Source: an uncultured bacterium
GTDB lineage: Bacteria; Lernaellota; Lernaellaia; Lernaellales; Lernaellaceae
Direction of reading: 5' to 3'
Length of the DNA stretch: 17,054 nucleotides
Assembly (NCBI GenBank): GCA_964534375.1
Contig: CAZHPN010000137.1
Location: forward strand, 1-17,054
A model generated the notes under the pieces. The model was given only the letters and a program-made list of their open reading frames with translations. It had not been told where the DNA came from and searched no databases. This document shows, in pieces, positions 3,058 to 13,188 of this stretch. The first letter of the stretch is position 1. The number at the start of each line of letters is the position of its first letter. Both the position numbers and the translations under genes were made by a program.

Positions 3058-3768
3058 ATGAAAGACAAAAACGCCAGTATCAACTATGCCATTTTCAAAA
3101 ACACCGAGGCCGAAATTCAGGCTCTTGCCCGCGCGAATCCGGTTACGCTCGTGGCATTTTCGGGCGGCAAAGACAGCTTGGTTCTGCTCGACCTCTGCTC
3201 GAAGGCGTTTCAAAAAGTCGTGTGTTTTTTCATGTATCTCGTGCCAAACCTCGCCGTCGCCGAAAAGCAGCTTGACTATGCACGCGACCGCTACGGCGTC
3301 GAAATTCTGCAATATCCGCATTGGGCGACCATCAAAAGCCTGAAAAATGGGGTCTATTGCAACGTTCATCCCTCGTGGGATGCAGTCAAAGAACAGACCG
3401 TCAACGACGTGCATGAATGGGTCAAGGCCGACACGGGCATCCCGATCATCGCGCACGGCGCCAAGAAAAGCGACAGCCTTTGGCGGCGGCGCTACATGGC
3501 CGCGCGGAAAAACAAGAAAGACGGCGCTTACTACCCCCTGGCCGACTGGAACAAATACGAAGTGCTGGCGTACCTGGGGCTGAACAACATCCCGCTGCCG
3601 GAAACGTCGAGCGGCGGCAAAAAGGCGGCGTCGGGCCTGGGCCTGATGACCGAATGCCTTTTGTGGCTGCACGACGAACACCCCGAAGATTTTGCAAAGG
3701 TGCTGACTTGGTATCCCTACGCCGAGGCGGTGGTGTACCGGAGAGATTGGTATGGAATCAAATACTGA
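3058..3768 (+). CDS. PAPS-reductase-like PP-loop (adenine nucleotide alpha-hydrolase) protein, mobile-element type
   Basis: PP-loop 'VAFSGGKDS', 'HGAKKSDSLWRR' and 'YPLADWNKYEVLAY'. Lacks the CysH C-terminal ECGLH and the CC...CxxC cluster motif. Confidence 0.85.
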   Translation: MKDKNASINYAIFKNTEAEIQALARANPVTLVAFSGGKDSLVLLDLCSKAFQKVVCFFMYLVPNLAVAEKQLDYARDRYGVEILQYPHWATIKSLKNGVYCNVHPSWDAVKEQTVNDVHEWVKADTGIPIIAHGAKKSDSLWRRRYMAARKNKKDGAYYPLADWNKYEVLAYLGLNNIPLPETSSGGKKAASGLGLMTECLLWLHDEHPEDFAKVLTWYPYAEAVVYRRDWYGIKY

Positions 3769-4646
3769 ATTGGGCGCGGCCGACGAGCAGACCGGCGAAC
3801 AAGGCGGCGAGAAGTCGGGGCGTAAGGGGGCGCAGGGAAAGGCCGGGATGCGTCGCGGCGCCGCAAGCGGCCGAACGAAGGCGCGGCCACGGCGCGGCAA
3901 GGGGCCGAAGGTTACACCGGGCGGGCTAAACCCGTTCGAGAAGTTTGAAGTCGTCGAAATTCACCGAAGTTTGATTAAGAACGCGCCCTATAACCCGCGT
4001 CAGATCACCGACGACGCCCGCGAGCGGTTGGGAAACAATATCGAAAAAGTGGGCCTGTTGACGCCGCTCGTTTGGAATGCGGAAACGGGCAACCTCGTTT
4101 TGGGGTCATCAGCGCCTTGAACGCCTCGACGCCAAGACCGGCACGCAGGATTACACCCTGCACGTCGCGCGGGTCCATCTCGATCCCGCGACCGAAAAAG
4201 CGCAGAACATTTTTTTCAACAATGCCAACGCGCAGGGCTATTTCGACATGGCCGCGCTCGAAACGATGTTCAAAGAGGAAAAAATCGACTTCGAGGCCGC
4301 GGGCTTCGACCTGGGGGAAGTCTATAAAGAGTTCGGCGAATCGCCGCTCGTGGAACAACCCGAACAGATGCTTGAGTTGTCGAAGCGAATCCGCGAGGCC
4401 GACGACCGCCAGAAACTAATCCGCGAAACCGTGAAAACGCGCGACGATGCCGATTTTTACCTCGTCGTCGTTTTCCCCGGCCACGATGAGCGCGAAAAGT
4501 TCACCGACGCGCTCGACCTCGACGACAACCGCTATATCGACGGCAAGAGTCTGCTCGCCAAATTGCTTGCGGCCCAGGCCGCGGCCGGCGCGATCTCGAC
4601 CACGACGGCGACCGCGACCGCGGCGGCGGCGGAAATGACAGTTTAG
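3752..4646 (+). pseudogene. ParB/Srx N-terminal-domain protein split by a single-base frameshift (sequencing error or true lesion)
   Basis: The first frame gives 'IKNAPYNPRQI...L..NIEKVGLLTPLVWNAETGNLV' and the +1 frame continues 'GHQRL...'. Deleting one base from TTTTGGGG (4098-4105) restores the ParB motif GNLVxGHQRL and a single ~297-aa ORF. Confidence 0.85.
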
Positions 4647-4856: not shown

Positions 4857-4891
4857 CCAGCACGGCCGTCTCACGACGGCCGGTTAAACGA

Positions 4892-4931
4892 AAAAGCCCC
4901 GGCGCGGCCGTAAGGCTGCGCCGGGGCTTTT
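4892..4931 (+). terminator. Intrinsic terminator, probably bidirectional, preceded by a second 8-bp hairpin at 4863-4882
   Basis: AAAAGCCCCGGCGCGGCC-GTAA-GGCTGCGCCGGGGCTTTT forms a long stem with a GNRA loop and A/T tracts on both sides. The upstream hairpin is CGGCCGTC-TCAC-GACGGCCG. Confidence 0.9.
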
Positions 4932-4958
4932 GCATTTGATTTCCGTTTATCTTACAAT
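4930..4958 (+). promoter_or_regulatory. Putative sigma70 promoter for the TM-HerA gene
   Basis: TTGCAT (4930-4935)-N17-TACAAT (4953-4958), about 75 nt upstream of ATG 5035. The -35 box overlaps the terminator T-tract. Confidence 0.6.
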
Positions 4959-5034
4959 CGCAACCTAGACGCGCTCTACACCTTGGATTTTTCAACAAAC
5001 AGGCTCAACAAGGCGAAGGGCAAAGGTCATCGAA

Positions 5035-8271: not shown

Positions 8272-8394
8272 ATTTTGGAAAGCCTGTCGCCGACGTAAAA
8301 AGCCTCCGAAAACATCGTGCCGATTCGCCAGCGGCAACCTAGCTGATGGCTACTTGACCAATCGCGCGAGGGCGGCGCGCGAAAGGCGCAGCAA

Positions 8395-8730
8395 TCACGT
8401 TCCTTTTTTGCCGCCCCGCTTCTGGGGCTTCGTTTGCGGGGCGTGGCGCGCAAACAGCGCCAACCCTTTTTTCGTCAACTGGTAGCCGCCCGCCCCGGCC
8501 TGTACGCTGGCCGGCAGCGCGGTAAAGCAATCGGGCCACGCAGACGGCCAAACTTGGCCGGTGCATGACCCGACGACGACTTCGCCATTTTCGCGGCGAA
8601 TCACGACGTCACAAGAGCCTTCCGCGCCGGCCGGCAGCACCGTTTTCCAAAGCTGGTCGGTCGGCACGCCGACGAGACGCCATCGCTCGATGCCTAGCTC
8701 GTCGTTCGCCGACAGCATGGTTGCGTTCAT
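8395..8730 (-). CDS. Hypothetical protein (111 aa)
   Basis: RBS GAAAAGAGGACAA-ATG of the type shared across the operon. Starts 16 nt after the DUF488 stop. Confidence 0.65.
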   Translation of the reverse strand: MNATMLSANDELGIERWRLVGVPTDQLWKTVLPAGAEGSCDVVIRRENGEVVVGSCTGQVWPSAWPDCFTALPASVQAGAGGYQLTKKGLALFARHAPQTKPQKRGGKKGT

Positions 8731-9357: not shown

Positions 9358-10377
9358 CTACATCTTGAGCGCGAAGATTTGCCGCTGATTTTCGGGTTTT
9401 TTCTCGCTGGCTTTGACGATCTTGAGCGCGGCGATCTCGCGGCCCATCGCCGCTAAGTCGCGTTCGTCTTGCTCGACACACTCGACCAATTCGGCATTTT
9501 TCGCGCGCAGATCACTGAGGCACGCCGCGACCAATTCAAAGCCCTTCGTCATTTCGGCCTGCAACCCGGCGACCATTGTTTCGACGGCCTTGCCATACTC
9601 GATGAGCTTTTGTTTGCAATGTTCGTCAACAGCGTCGAGCAGATCGTCGGCGGGAGTGCGCGCGGGGGCCGTCAAAAATTCCTTCACGGCCGCGGCGCTC
9701 ATGTCGTCCTCGATGGTCGCCGGCGCGGGCGCGGCCTTCGGCTTGAATTCATAAACGGTCGCGCCGGCCTCATTGTCGTCGTCGGTGGTCGGTTCGGTCG
9801 TCGTCATGGCGATCGGCGCCGCCTCGACAATCGCCGCCCGGTTGAGCGGCAAATTGCGCGGGTCGCTGATCGGCCAGGGCGTGCCGTCCGCGTCGAAACT
9901 GATTTTTTCCAGTTCACGAATCGCGGTCATCGCCAGATTCGACCATGTGCAACCGTCGTCGGATTTTGGGACCGTGATTTCGTGGGCCTCTTTCTTTCGG
10001 TCCCACAAGATCCCGTATTTCGCGGCGACGAACTCTTGAGCGGTCAACTCGTTTTCCGCGGTGAAAGACCGATGCACGTTGATAAAATCCGCGCCCATGA
10101 ACCGCTGTCCATCATACGGATAGGCTTCATAGTCCATCGAGTCGGTCATTCCGTCGAATGTCGTGCGGGTGAACGCATTCGTAACCTGTTCGACCAGCGC
10201 GCTCGCCGGCCCATCGGTGTAGCCGATGCTCACCGAGCAGCCGCCGCTATACTTGCTGGTCGTGACCGAAAATTTGCAGTCGGGGAAAAAATGCTTCAAC
10301 GCGAGCCGGATTTTTTTCGCGGTTTGCGTAGCATCCTCGAACGCCCATTCTTGCCGTCCTTTGTCCTGTTCGTTCAT
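9358..10377 (-). CDS. LPD29 (large polyvalent protein-associated domain 29) protein with C-terminal coiled coil (339 aa, start revised to 10377)
   Basis: 'TAKKIRLALKHFFPDCKFSV....YSGGCSVSIGYTDGP....V......F....FDGMTD' matches LPD29 as I recall it. RBS GAAAAGAGGC precedes ATG 10377. Confidence 0.8.
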   Translation of the reverse strand: MNEQDKGRQEWAFEDATQTAKKIRLALKHFFPDCKFSVTTSKYSGGCSVSIGYTDGPASALVEQVTNAFTRTTFDGMTDSMDYEAYPYDGQRFMGADFINVHRSFTAENELTAQEFVAAKYGILWDRKKEAHEITVPKSDDGCTWSNLAMTAIRELEKISFDADGTPWPISDPRNLPLNRAAIVEAAPIAMTTTEPTTDDDNEAGATVYEFKPKAAPAPATIEDDMSAAAVKEFLTAPARTPADDLLDAVDEHCKQKLIEYGKAVETMVAGLQAEMTKGFELVAACLSDLRAKNAELVECVEQDERDLAAMGREIAALKIVKASEKKPENQRQIFALKM

Positions 10378-10409
10378 CTCGTGCCTCTTTTCTTCGGGCA
10401 GTAATCGCC

Positions 10410-10447
10410 CGACCCAGGCCCGCGCCGCGGGACGTGAGCTAGGGTCG
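10410..10447 (-). repeat. Intergenic hairpin motif, copy C (diverged, covarying)
   Basis: CGACCC-UAG-CUCACGU-CCCGCG-GCGCGGG-CCU-GGGUCG, followed by the CGGGC/GCCCG hairpin and the RBS. Confidence 0.7.
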
Positions 10448-10451
10448 TCGA

Positions 10452-10871
10452 TCACACGACGAACCGTTTTTTTTCGACCATGCGAAGGGTGATTTTCTGT
10501 TGCGGCTTGCCGGCCGGCGTTTCAACGTGGCTGTCGATGACCCACGCAAGATTGTCCCAATAAACGCCGCCGATTTCTTCGACCAGCTTCGCGGGGTGCA
10601 GGTGGTATGGCCGCCGCGCCGGCTTGACCAGTTGGACGGTATAGGTGTCGTCGGCCGCCAAAAAAACGGTGACGTAGCCCTTGAACAACCGGCCGGTCAC
10701 TTTGAAACGCAGACCGCCACGCATCAGCACGCCGTCGCGCTTTTCCTCGGGCATTGCCGCGAATTCGTGCGCGCCCCAGGAACCCAGGGTCGCATTGCCG
10801 CCGACCGCGAGAATTTGCTGCTTAATCGTGTTGGCGATCTCGACCGCTCGTTGCGCCTGTTCGTTATCCAT
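10452..10871 (-). CDS. Hypothetical phage-type protein (139 aa, start revised to 10871)
   Basis: RBS AAAAAGAGGCGAAA-ATG. 'IANTIKQQI...WGA...GLRFKV....KGYVTVFL..DDTYTV...GVYWDNL...ID' resembles a widespread uncharacterised phage family. Confidence 0.75.
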   Translation of the reverse strand: MDNEQAQRAVEIANTIKQQILAVGGNATLGSWGAHEFAAMPEEKRDGVLMRGGLRFKVTGRLFKGYVTVFLAADDTYTVQLVKPARRPYHLHPAKLVEEIGGVYWDNLAWVIDSHVETPAGKPQQKITLRMVEKKRFVV

Positions 10872-10907
10872 TTTCGCCTCTTTTTGTTGGAGCATTGGAG
10901 TAATGCC

Positions 10908-10941
10908 CGCCAGGAACGCGCCGCGGGGCGTGTTCTAGGCG
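10908..10941 (-). repeat. Intergenic hairpin motif, copy B
   Basis: CGCC-UAG-AACACGC-CCCGCG-GCGCGUU-CCU-GGCG. Shares the flanks CGCGTAGTGCGCGCCTAGA and CCTGGCGGGCAT with copy A. Confidence 0.8.
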
Positions 10942-10945
10942 CGCA

Positions 10946-11323
10946 CTACGCGCTCTCGACCGGCGACGCCTCGACTTTTTCCTCGTGCAACGACGCCGCG
11001 CACTCGCTCATCACATGGGCGAACCGCTGCTCGGCGGTAAGGCCGCTCAGGTCAAGCGGCTTCTCGCCGAACACCGGCCGCGGGGCTTTCGGCTGTTCGG
11101 GTTCGCCAAACATGCTCGCGGTTTTTTCTTCGGTGTCGGTGTCGGGGCGTGCATCGGGCGGGACGACGGCGGCGAGCCGCGCAACGTCCACGTCGAAAAG
11201 CGGGCGCGCTTTCTGGCCGAAAATGTCGGCCTGTCGCGCATCGGTTTTCCTCGATCTCGCGCCGACGACAACGGCCTCGTCGCCCGCGAATAGGTCGCGC
11301 CGGGTTGTCACTGTTCTTTTCAT
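10946..11323 (-). CDS. Hypothetical, probably disordered protein (125 aa) with repeated hydrophobic-Phe motifs
   Basis: RBS AAGAGGCGAAA-ATG. The stop sits directly before motif copy B. Confidence 0.7.
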   Translation of the reverse strand: MKRTVTTRRDLFAGDEAVVVGARSRKTDARQADIFGQKARPLFDVDVARLAAVVPPDARPDTDTEEKTASMFGEPEQPKAPRPVFGEKPLDLSGLTAEQRFAHVMSECAASLHEEKVEASPVESA

Positions 11324-11342
11324 TTTCGCCTCTTGTCCTGTT

Positions 11343-11409
11343 TTGAGCGGTCAAAATCGACGCTCAAGAAAAGGCCCGAAGCACCGCGCTTCGGGCCTGA
11401 TCTTGAACG
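11343..11409 (-). terminator. Terminator-like hairpin with alternative pairings (possible attenuator or processing site)
   Basis: AGGCCCGAAGC-GCGGU-GCUUCGGGCCU-UUUCUU. The outer arms CGUUCAAGA/UCUUGAGCG extend the stem, and UUGAGCG can instead pair with downstream CGCUCAA. Confidence 0.65.
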
Positions 11410-11422
11410 GGCGGCGAGCCGC

Positions 11423-12109
11423 CTAAAACGGCACTTCGTCGTCGGTCCCTGTGCTTTGGCCGGAGTCTTGCTCTTGCGGTTGCTCTGGTGCTTGCTCTTG
11501 GCGCGCTTTTTCGCTTTCCTCGTAGTTGGCCAATTCAAGCGCAAGCTGTTCCCGCGACTCCATTTCGGCAATTCGCTCCGGTGCTCGCAAAAACGGAAGG
11601 TAATGCGTAAGGCACCCGTGAATCTCACCAAGGGCCAAACCGCCGTTAATTCGCTGGTGTTGCTCAAGGCAAATTTTCATCGCAATGAGCAATTTTTGGT
11701 CAAACGGAAGCGCGCCGATTTCCTCGCTGCTCACGTCGTAACCGTTTTCGCCGCCGACCTCGCGCAACACGTCGTTGACGGTGTTGTGCGCTTCGACGGT
11801 TTCACAATGTTCGCCCGCCGGGTCGCCGCCGTGGTAGTTTTCCCGAAAATACAGTTCGACGAACAGCATGAAGTCCCACGACCGGACTATTATCATCGGA
11901 TGGTACTCAAGATAATCAAATCCGTTGAAGTAATAGCCGTGGAACCGCGGCCCCTTTTTGCGAGGATAATAACCGGCCTCCAAGTCAGGCACGAACGCCG
12001 GTTTCTCTTTTTTCGCTTTTTTCGGTTTGCTTTCTTCGACCGGCTTTTCCTTCGGTTTCGCCTTTTGGCTGGCAACCTTGCCGGCCTTTTTGTCCTGTTC
12101 TGTGTTCAT
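11423..12109 (-). CDS. Hypothetical protein (228 aa) with Lys-rich N-terminus and SSB-like acidic tail (DDEVPF)
   Basis: RBS GAGGCAAAA-ATG. Bounded by motif copy A and the 11343-11409 hairpin. Confidence 0.75.
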   Translation of the reverse strand: MNTEQDKKAGKVASQKAKPKEKPVEESKPKKAKKEKPAFVPDLEAGYYPRKKGPRFHGYYFNGFDYLEYHPMIIVRSWDFMLFVELYFRENYHGGDPAGEHCETVEAHNTVNDVLREVGGENGYDVSSEEIGALPFDQKLLIAMKICLEQHQRINGGLALGEIHGCLTHYLPFLRAPERIAEMESREQLALELANYEESEKARQEQAPEQPQEQDSGQSTGTDDEVPF

Positions 12110-12137
12110 TTTTGCCTCGCTTTTCGGGCGATATGCC

Positions 12138-12169
12138 CGCCAGGACCGCGCTTTTGCGTGGTCTAGGCG
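12138..12169 (-). repeat. Intergenic hairpin motif, copy A
   Basis: CGCC-UAG-ACCACGC-AAAA-GCGCGGU-CCU-GGCG, followed by the CGGGC-AUAUC-GCCCG hairpin and the RBS. Confidence 0.8.
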
Positions 12170-12173
12170 CGCA

Positions 12174-12488
12174 CTACGCGCCGGCGCTTTCGCTTTTGGG
12201 TTCGTTGAGGGAGTATTGGGGCCAATCGGCCGGGGTGCTCAAATCGCCATGAATCCACGGCTTGTTACAACCGCATTCGCTAATTTCGCAGTATTCCGCG
12301 CCCTGATTTTGCCGAAGCTCGACGCTTTGCGTTTGGCGCAGTTCGGTCGCTTGCCGGCGCGACAACTCGTAAACATTTATCGCCACATCGACCGCATCGC
12401 GTCGGCTTTCTAATGCTTGGCAAAAGTCAGGCAAACAGCCGTGCGAACCGCCCATAATAATCCAGTGTGTTTTCGCCGCCTTGTTCAT
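12174..12488 (-). CDS. Hypothetical protein (104 aa), Cys/His-containing, first gene of the leftward operon
   Basis: RBS AAAAGAGGCGAAAA-ATG. Contains 'HGCLPD' and 'CEISECGC..PWIH'. Confidence 0.75.
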   Translation of the reverse strand: MNKAAKTHWIIMGGSHGCLPDFCQALESRRDAVDVAINVYELSRRQATELRQTQSVELRQNQGAEYCEISECGCNKPWIHGDLSTPADWPQYSLNEPKSESAGA

Positions 12489-12814: not shown

Positions 12815-13073
12815 AAGTGTTGAAAATCTCAACACTTCTTTTAAGGCTGACATTAACAACGCCCTGGCTTGTCATCTTGCTATGGACTCCCCAGGACTTG
12901 AGCAAGCCTTAAGGGTCTTGCCCTCGCCTTACTGCTTGGAAAAGAACTAACTGAACATGCGTATTATAACGTAGCTGTTAGATAATGCAAGCATTATTTT
13001 CGGTTTTTTCGTTACATTTTGTAACGTTTGTCGTTAAAGAATAGCGGCCTAAGTGTTTAGTTTTACAACACTT
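12815..13073. promoter_or_regulatory. Pair of palindromic sites AAGTGTT-N9-AACACTT (12815-12837 and 13051-13073) bracketing the promoter
   Basis: Identical 7-bp arms and identical 9-nt spacing with different spacer sequences. Confidence 0.55.
12963..12990 (-). promoter_or_regulatory. Sigma70-type promoter for the leftward operon
   Basis: Minus strand TTGCAT (12990-12985)-N16-TATAAT (12968-12963) with an A-rich upstream tract. The palindrome ATAATGC-AA-GCATTAT (12982-12997) overlaps the -35 box. Confidence 0.7.
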
Positions 13074-13076
13074 TAT

Positions 13077-13188
13077 GCGCTACCAGGGCGACCAGGGCGC
13101 TACCAGGACGGCAGGGCGCTACCAGGACGGGGCAGGGCGCTACCAGGACGGCAGGGCGCTACCAGGACGGCAGGGCGCCACCAGGACG
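13077..13188. repeat. Tandem array of about 6 copies of a 19-bp unit GCGCTACCAGGACGGCAGG
   Basis: Units start at 13077 (degenerate), 13097, 13116 (+GG), 13137, 13156 and 13175 (partial), with no spacers. Confidence 0.95.

Follow-up and report, generated by a model that had tools for sequence, protein, structure and literature searches.

What are the three similar hairpins that stand at the gene junctions of a small-gene operon in an uncultured bacterium of the Lernaellaceae, and what could they do for the messages that they separate? The stretch in question (contig CAZHPN010000137.1 of assembly GCA_964534375.1, here C137) was analysed as one window, which is the whole 17,054-base contig; the assembly has 6.3 Mb in 381 contigs. 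An original prediction, made from the letters of the DNA alone, had described a structured RNA motif outside recognised families, repeated at three gene junctions with compensatory base changes. The three hairpins are called rods below. The repeat and its pairing exceed chance. The role of the rods is less firm. Tentatively, they are read as signals for processing and stability of messenger RNA (mRNA) at cistron boundaries.

Architecture of the three rods

All three copies lie on the minus strand, with their cores exactly where they had been predicted (Table 1). Each rod is an irregular hairpin of 50-55 nt, larger than first described. From the base upward, the lower half starts with a basal stem of 7 positions, which is followed by a 1x1 (or 1x2) mismatch, by stem b of 4 or 6 base pairs (bp) and by a 2x2 internal loop in which UA faces CU. 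Above this loop come stem c with 4 bp, an A.C mismatch, stem d with 3-4 bp and a tetraloop. The folds agree with the shared plan proposed earlier, an outer stem followed by the internal loop, a short stem, the A.C mismatch, a second short stem and the terminal loop. The sequence common to all three copies is CCUAG-NN-CACG...CGCG-NN-CCUGG. Copies 1 and 2 are near-identical, and even the last codon before the stop is included in this likeness. Copy 3 has a stem b that is 2 bp longer and contains three G.U pairs. The terminal loop varies (AAAA vs CCGC). From the base to the terminal loop there are 23-25 stacked positions in the three copies, and the 2x2 loop is 12-15 positions away from the base and 8-9 positions away from the terminal loop. 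The minimum free energies (MFE) of copies 1, 2 and 3 are -33.4, -33.9 and -33.1 kcal/mol, with z-scores of -4.7, -4.3 and -2.7 against dinucleotide shuffles.

The motif had been placed just after a stop codon and just before a small hairpin and a ribosome-binding site (RBS). The downstream half of this description was borne out, but the stop codon itself lies inside the basal stem. In every copy, the stop codon of the upstream gene (UAG, UAG and UGA for copies 1-3) is found in the same register of this stem, and both UAG and UGA pair with the same UUA via wobble. Directly 3' of each rod, the mRNA strand reads GGGCAU. All three rods stand between same-strand open reading frames (ORFs) with conserved RBSs, which are presumably co-transcribed.

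Table 1. Positions of the rods, of the other RNA features and of the minus-strand genes in the window
Feature	Position	Strand	Details
Rod copy 1	12179-12128 (core 12169-12138)	minus	orf104/orf228 junction; stop UAG 12176-12174; model R1 66.5 bits
Rod copy 2	10949-10900 (core 10941-10908)	minus	orf125/orf139 junction; stop UAG 10948-10946; model R1 75.5 bits
Rod copy 3	10455-10401 (core 10447-10410)	minus	orf139/LPD29 junction; stop UGA 10454-10452; model R1 64.8 bits
Small downstream hairpin, copy 1	12126-12138	minus	GGGC/GCCC; fold of the cut fragment -10.0 kcal/mol, RBS free
Small downstream hairpin, copy 2	10889-10908	minus	GGGCAUU/AAUGCUCC; -7.4 kcal/mol
Small downstream hairpin, copy 3	10394-10412	minus	UCGGGCG/UGCCCGA; -11.3 kcal/mol
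Alternative upstream hairpin, copies 1 and 2	12166-12182 (copy 1); 10939-10953 (copy 2, same sequence)	minus	from folds of the upstream fragments
Alternative upstream hairpin, copy 3	10442-10465	minus	own version; from folds of the upstream fragment
Type II hammerhead candidate	9328-9251	minus	between LPD29 stop (9360-9358) and DUF488 start (AUG 9231); RF02276 29.4 bits
Leader helix	12478-12592	minus	GUCCUGUUCAUUUUCUGCCU pairs with the Shine-Dalgarno sequence and AUG of orf104; inverted repeat I14; MFE -57.4 kcal/mol, z -5.8
Terminator-like hairpin	11398-11372	minus	12 bp with U run; orf228/orf125 junction
Type IIG restriction-modification gene	16620-13330	minus	Eco57I family; PADLOC REase_MTase_IIG E 3e-229; first in row
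orf104	12488-12174	minus	first small gene
orf228	12109-11423	minus	
orf125	11323-10946	minus	
orf139	10871-10452	minus	between copies 2 and 3
LPD29-domain gene (339 aa)	10377-9358	minus	PF18847 E 3.5e-21; downstream of copy 3
DUF488 gene	9231-8747	minus	
orf111	8730-8395	minus	

Conservation of the pairing

Pairing is kept at 56 of the 58 stem positions (16/18 in copy 1, 19/19 in copy 2 and 21/21 in copy 3). The sole unpaired positions are a U.U and an A.A in the basal stem of copy 1. Both partners have changed at four pairs, namely positions 6 and 7 of stem a and positions 2 and 3 of stem c. The two extra pairs in stem b of copy 3 were inserted on both strands, and the three other changes, each on one side only, are compatible with wobble pairing. 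Copies 2 and 3 differ at seven pairs, every one of which is still paired (p about 0.002 by crude arithmetic). In a 12-pair core, 34/34 cells pair and 2 of the 12 pairs change on both sides, compared with 19-53% of cells pairing in slid controls. Because the changes between the copies are compensatory, the comparison argues for a hairpin structure that is real and selected. The earlier claim of stem covariation is upheld in so far as pairing survives two-sided changes, whereas a formal significance of covariation is out of reach with three sequences. The claim that certain loop bases stay specially fixed was not sustained. When copy 3 is compared with copies 1 and 2, none of six loop positions differ as against 10-11 of 30 paired positions, for which the one-sided p is 0.09-0.12.

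Active strand and competing flanking hairpins

A role on the mRNA had been proposed from the wobble pairs of the minus strand, and the sense strand is indeed the better candidate. The energies on the minus strand are uniform (-32.3, -32.5 and -31.9 kcal/mol for copies 1-3), and those on the plus strand are -31.2, -30.9 and -24.3 kcal/mol. On the plus strand, A.C mismatches take the place of the three G.U pairs in copy 3. RNA is favoured as the probable active form because the sense-strand stability is equal among the copies, because the rods are phased on minus-strand stop codons and RBSs, and because the competing hairpins at their flanks are sensible only in an mRNA.

These hairpins are found on both sides of each rod (Table 1). 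On the 5' side, the end of the ORF can pair with the 5' lower strand of the rod, with part of the stop codon in the loop. On the 3' side, the 3' lower strand of the rod can pair downstream and form the small hairpin before the RBS. The 5' strand of the small hairpin is shared with the 3' strand of stem b and/or of the basal stem (three basal-stem bases in copy 1 and one in copy 2). Since they share a strand, the rod and the small hairpin compete. The rod is more stable than the form with three hairpins by about 3-7 kcal/mol, as calculated over sequence intervals that differ slightly. Folding was repeated for the fragments that a notional cut in the CU loop would give, the downstream fragments being taken from the CU loop to the start of the next gene. 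All three downstream fragments fold a 5'-proximal hairpin and leave the RBS unpaired, and in copies 1 and 3 the upper hairpin forms the 3' terminus of the upstream fragment.

Other copies and known families

A covariance model (R1) was built from the three rod copies. In the genome, the copies themselves score 64.8-75.5 bits, the next match is their own antisense at 22 bits, and the best score elsewhere is 19.8 bits. A 16-base pattern matches only the three rods in the 6.3 Mb genome, and its reversed control matches nothing. A structural descriptor with 6 fixed bases and 11 pairs finds four genome sites, which are the three rods and an unrelated site on contig C148; the same descriptor finds no site on the reversed genome.

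Novelty was judged by Rfam scan, and the literature search was aimed at context. The expectation that the motif lies outside known families was confirmed, as no Rfam 15 family covers the rods either in the whole window at E<=1 or in the interval 10360-10960, which spans copies 2 and 3, at E<=10. The whole-window scan gave three matches, none on the rods, and the narrower scan gave four weak matches, none spanning a rod. A match to P31 (19.2 bits, gathering 40) at 10441-10498 on the minus strand touches the 5' edge of copy 3, where it pairs the end of the ORF with the 5' lower strand of the rod. The available portion of PMC13478746 holds nothing on such hairpins.

The search was extended to other collections. 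Among viral contigs, the 16-base pattern is met at 51 loci, none with the stems, and among genome contigs an 18-base pattern is met at 77 loci, none with the inner and outer stems together. Among metagenome contigs, the exact pattern occurs at 121 loci at least, and among the matches listed only three (L176, L177 and L188) carry the motif. They represent the same element; L177 is 100% identical and L188 is 99.5% identical, with its 8 differences all within the LPD29 gene. A blastn search with one junction gave no match in phages, and in plasmids, among the matches listed, only chance matches of 32 nt (E 0.2). A DNA search for the operon in 60 relatives returned short chance matches only. At 12 viral loci that encode relatives of orf139, there is no R1 match above 10.1 bits and no hammerhead. 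As far as seen, the motif is private to one element. Because no homologue has been found outside it, the rods are not yet an RNA family in the comparative sense. They are a new sequence family of a known kind, the intercistronic irregular hairpin.

Several candidates were set aside in these searches. When R1 was run on 150 relatives, five genomes gave one match each (23.4-25.9 bits). At least three of the five are terminator-like hairpins with U runs, and none has the UA/CU loop together with the A.C mismatch. A hairpin at 8344-8399 on the minus strand begins with the stop codon (UGA) of orf111 and is arranged in a loosely comparable way. It scores 11.3 bits with R1 (E 0.27, z -0.65) and was not counted; it may be a decayed relative or chance. 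The search pattern was also met by a tandem 15-nt repeat (CTCACGCGGGCCTGG) at about 1989-2060 of L081, a contig of a Planctomycetota metagenome-assembled genome. This repeat mimics half of copy 3 and is probably unrelated to the rods.

A possible role in mRNA processing

The rods are read, with due reserve, as processing and stability signals because their geometry suits RNase III, the genome carries a gene for this enzyme and the fragments have the potential to refold. Each rod is an irregular helix of about two turns, interrupted by the central 2x2 loop (UA/CU) and the A.C mismatch. In the proposed scheme, it would be recognised by an endonuclease specific for double strands, most simply the RNase III of the host, and cut at or near the central loop. 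After the cut, the upstream message would keep a 3'-terminal hairpin. The downstream message would refold its freed 3' strand into the small 5'-proximal hairpin, ahead of an open RBS. In this way, the operon would be resolved into separately stabilised single-gene messages, and a hammerhead ribozyme would do the equivalent job at the LPD29/DUF488 junction. The cleavage of the rods, the cut site and the enzyme are what we infer here.

The genome encodes RNase III (PF14622, 134.6 bits, contig C167). The 23-25 stacked positions of the rods compare with the 22 bp given for an ideal substrate by Nicholson (2013, PMC3867540). The same source states that a loop, bulge or mismatch at the target site makes RNase III cut one strand only, which can leave stabilising 3' hairpins, and that the polycistronic early mRNA of phage T7 has five RNase III processing signals. 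The UA/CU 2x2 loop near the middle of each rod is a candidate target site of this kind, and the rods, like RNase III signals, lie between cistrons that are presumably co-transcribed. For hammerheads, Perreault et al. (2011, PMC3088659) describe several examples in prophages that flank single genes or short blocks, including ardA in Agrobacterium, and these authors take them to process long transcripts into single-gene mRNAs. The hammerhead candidate, the RNase III gene and the rod length with its central 2x2 loop thus lend indirect support to a processing role.

The closest counterparts in proposed mechanism are the T7 signals and the closest in location are the gene-flanking hammerhead arrays, and the rods are a member of neither. 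Like the T7 early-mRNA signals, the rods are several homologous irregular hairpins between cistrons of one mobile-element transcript, are about two helical turns long with an internal loop or mismatch near the middle, and would on cleavage leave a 3' hairpin on the upstream message (Nicholson 2013, PMC3867540). In contrast to them, the rods have no sequence relation to the T7 signals, their host is not E. coli, and their cleavage is hypothetical. The rods also build the stop codon into the stem and have competing flanking hairpins. Their internal loop is a small symmetric 2x2 loop with a separate A.C mismatch, whereas T7 R1.1 has a larger asymmetric loop. The prophage hammerhead arrays, for instance at ardA of Agrobacterium tumefaciens, share with the rods the repetition of RNA elements at successive junctions of small genes of mobile or anti-restriction type (Perreault et al. 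2011, PMC3088659). The present operon likewise carries a type II hammerhead candidate at one junction. Unlike these arrays, the rods lack a hammerhead core and are matched by none of the ribozyme models. Any cleavage of the rods would probably be the work of a protein nuclease.

Two further kinds of intercistronic hairpin were compared. Repetitive extragenic palindromic (REP) sequences and bacterial interspersed mosaic elements (BIME) form intercistronic hairpins that stabilise the upstream mRNA, for example in malEFG. By analogy, the rods would resemble them as imperfect palindromes at stop codons within operons that act on mRNA stability. REP sequences, however, are dispersed in tens to hundreds of copies per genome, whereas there are exactly three rods in one operon. 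The possibility of an intrinsic terminator was rejected. The minus-strand scan lists the hairpin at the orf228/orf125 junction and no site at any rod, and a U run is absent after the rods. A single entry of the scan does reach a rod: a stem on the plus strand at 10445-10462, followed by a T run, lies over the 5' base of copy 3.

A number of points weigh against a processing role. The rules of RNase III recognition come mainly from E. coli and may not transfer to this organism. Among the sequencing runs checked for the locus, no RNA run is listed as holding it, and the hairpins are identical, with no variation, across contigs from four DNA runs. The searches made brought up no homologue outside this element. 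The covariation rests on three paralogous copies, 71 of 500 shuffles equal the covariation observed in the core, and the extra conservation of the loop bases is not significant. The strand argument rests mostly on copy 3. The MFE fold of the upstream fragment of copy 2 is not a simple 3'-terminal hairpin. Finally, the hammerhead candidate scores below the gathering threshold (29.4 vs 37 bits), and sub-threshold hammerhead matches at E<=1 were seen in 6 of 14 control genomes.

Alternative explanations

The rods could act on the mRNA without being cut there. They may be an operator for an RNA-binding protein, encoded by the operon or by the host, which reads the UA/CU loop and the A.C mismatch and controls termination, reinitiation or translation of the next cistron. 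We consider this unlikely, although the internal-loop bases are identical in all three copies while the stems vary, the basal stem hides the stop codon, the 3' strand of the rod can switch to the small hairpin beside the RBS, and four proteins of the operon (orf104, orf125, orf228 and orf139) are without recognisable function. Against such an operator, the conservation of the loops is indistinguishable from chance at the p-values given above, the folds show that the downstream RBS is not sequestered by the rod, and there is no RNA-binding family among the operon proteins; Atlas searches with orf228 and orf104 gave no named lead. The same lack of significance in the loops speaks for a plainer explanation, in which the rods are generic intercistronic hairpins, serving as barriers to 3' exonucleases or as pause sites, and were spread inside the operon by duplication. 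Only stem stability would then be selected, with the loops as inherited baggage. The near-equal stability of the copies on the sense strand fits this well, and pairing is what is demonstrably maintained. The near-identity of copies 1 and 2 extends into the last codon before the stop, and other phage loci with orf139 relatives carry unrelated repeated intergenic elements of their own. Even so, four mismatched positions are kept in every copy despite their cost in stability, the phasing on stop codons and the competing hairpins on both sides exceed what a simple barrier needs, and the operon has a canonical U-tailed hairpin where one is needed. Generic hairpins are given only a small share of our confidence.

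An element that works as DNA was also weighed, such as a hairpin of single-stranded DNA (ssDNA) or a recombination or cassette site, whether an attC-like site, a signal for priming or a promoter that works as ssDNA in a conjugative leading region. A series of small genes, each followed by a similar imperfect palindrome, resembles a cassette array. As in integron attC sites, an imperfect hairpin follows each of several small genes and unpaired bases are kept in the stem. Relatives of the LPD29 protein are encoded on 345 plasmid records by tblastn, 195 of them typed conjugative, and in one plasmid inspected the LPD29 gene closes a series of small genes on one strand; traM is about 1.3 kb from it, beyond a single intervening gene. 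Read on the plus strand, the rods have G.T wobbles in place of their A.C mismatches. The attC core-site consensus is R''/R' AAC...GTT at the ends of the hairpin. The rods differ in having no such conserved core sites at their ends and in being only about 50 nt long; AAC...GTT is present in copy 2 only, in the middle of the hairpin. No integrase, including the integron integrase (Phage_integrase family), and no relaxase or recombinase family is found among the 19 ORFs of the contig that were scanned. Moreover, the plus-strand form of copy 3 is weaker by 7.6 kcal/mol than the minus-strand form, no -35/-10-like boxes are listed in the GC-rich rods, and the spacing of the half-sites differs by 2 nt between copies, which speaks against a dimeric binder of double-stranded DNA. 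A DNA-level element is thus very unlikely. Less credible still is a new self-cleaving ribozyme, made of the rod and its flanking hairpins, in the junction slot that is filled elsewhere by hammerheads. The operon whose junctions the rods occupy does carry a hammerhead candidate as well. New ribozyme classes were reportedly found near known ones by Weinberg and colleagues in 2015. Arrangements of multiple ribozymes that flank single genes are documented by Perreault et al. (2011, PMC3088659). However, the rod is straight and its conserved unpaired bases number only about 6-7; its variable terminal loop gives no sign of a tertiary contact, and no Rfam ribozyme model matches. The chance of this is in our view slight in the extreme.

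A bolder idea is that the rod and its two flanking hairpins form a new cistron-separating RNA module, functionally interchangeable with hammerheads in mobile-element operons, which would either cleave itself or recruit a dedicated nuclease under the control of the ribosome that finishes at the stop codon within the stem. We regard this as a long shot. If it were true, each message would be released only after translation of the preceding gene. If the rods are processing signals, one transcript would be split by two means, protein-cut hairpins and a self-cleaving ribozyme, and the operon would offer a compact natural example in which to ask why mRNAs are segmented in mobile and defence-island operons. 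As the motif comes from one element only, its wider importance depends on the finding of relatives.

Other elements at the junctions

The hammerhead candidate at the LPD29/DUF488 junction has a complete core (CUGAUGA, CGAAAC and GUC) and formed stems, with a predicted cut between C9293 and U9292. Its loss of score is mainly due to a long loop. E-values of 0.019, 3.3e-4 and 0.0016 were obtained for the window, for 301 nt and for the whole genome, respectively, and among the four genome matches the candidate ranks first. The RBS of DUF488 is paired with sequence upstream of the candidate in the MFE fold.

In the leader, a partial fourth copy of the motif had been suggested for GCCUAGACC at 12576-12568. 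No R1 match was obtained there even with filters off at E<=10, and this piece belongs to a different helix (Table 1). Two hairpins lie within that helix, and one of these is a perfect stem of 16 bp (12555-12507). In the predicted fold, the leader helix is a translational mask of orf104 and not a partial rod, and this suggests translational control of the first gene.

The orf228/orf125 junction (11324-11422) is the only small-gene junction without a rod. Here, the U-tailed hairpin lies within a longer helix and a second hairpin precedes the RBS (z -4.8 for the junction as a whole). Overall, the operon has one ribozyme candidate at a junction, three rods, one U-tailed hairpin and a leader that, in its predicted fold, masks the first RBS.

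Gene content and surroundings

The DNA runs with this locus are labelled as wetland metagenomes. On the minus strand, the type IIG restriction-modification gene is separated by an 840-nt leader from the row of small genes. These have near-identical RBSs (AAGAGGCGAAAAUG), and upstream of every small-gene start there is a hairpin, then an A-rich spacer, then a Shine-Dalgarno sequence. The plus strand encodes AbiGi, a HerA-like ATPase, a PAPS-reductase-domain gene and ParB-like pieces. The contig surroundings look like a defence island because of these genes. Polyvalent proteins are reported to be the subject of work by Iyer and colleagues in 2017.

Searches of Pfam, PHROGs, NCBIfam and PADLOC gave nothing for the products of orf104, orf125 and orf228 and, for orf139, just a weak match to a PHROG of no assigned function. 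One relative of orf104 was found (53% identity). A word-indexed protein search gave no close relatives for orf139 or for the LPD29 protein. An exhaustive search for orf139 gave 212 representatives at E<=1e-3, and the family consists of proteins of about 100-125 amino acids. By tblastn, orf139 has no match in plasmids and is matched in three unannotated phage records.

Several of the viral loci with orf139 relatives carry their own, unrelated repeated intergenic elements. In L276 (2914-2995 and 4231-4312) and likewise in L278, an 82-nt promoter-like unit with a GC hairpin stands directly upstream of the orf139 relative. L277 has six copies of TGGCAC-N5-TTGCA, which we take to resemble the sigma-54 promoter consensus.

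A few further features were noted in the window. A tandem array at 13077-13188, about 140 nt past the stop of the restriction-modification gene and upstream of an AT-rich promoter-like stretch, has 5.7 copies of a 19-20 nt unit (minus strand CGUCCUGGUAGCGCCCUGC). It could be a set of protein-binding repeats. The AT-rich island covers 12960-13090 (minus) in a GC-rich contig and contains TTGCAT-16 nt-TATAAT at 12990-12963. If this is a promoter, the 5' untranslated region of the operon would be about 460 nt long and without an Rfam match. At 4890-4993, in the gap before the HerA-like gene, both strands give a weak match to Rfam sR035 (25.5 and 19.7 bits, gathering 233). The match on two strands suggests a palindromic stretch, and the assignment to sR035 is not credible. 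On the plus strand, two overlapping ORFs (3752-4120 and 4077-4646, together 3752-4646) match consecutive parts of phrog_9353 (ParB-like) and give the impression of a single gene that a frameshift or an assembly error has divided.

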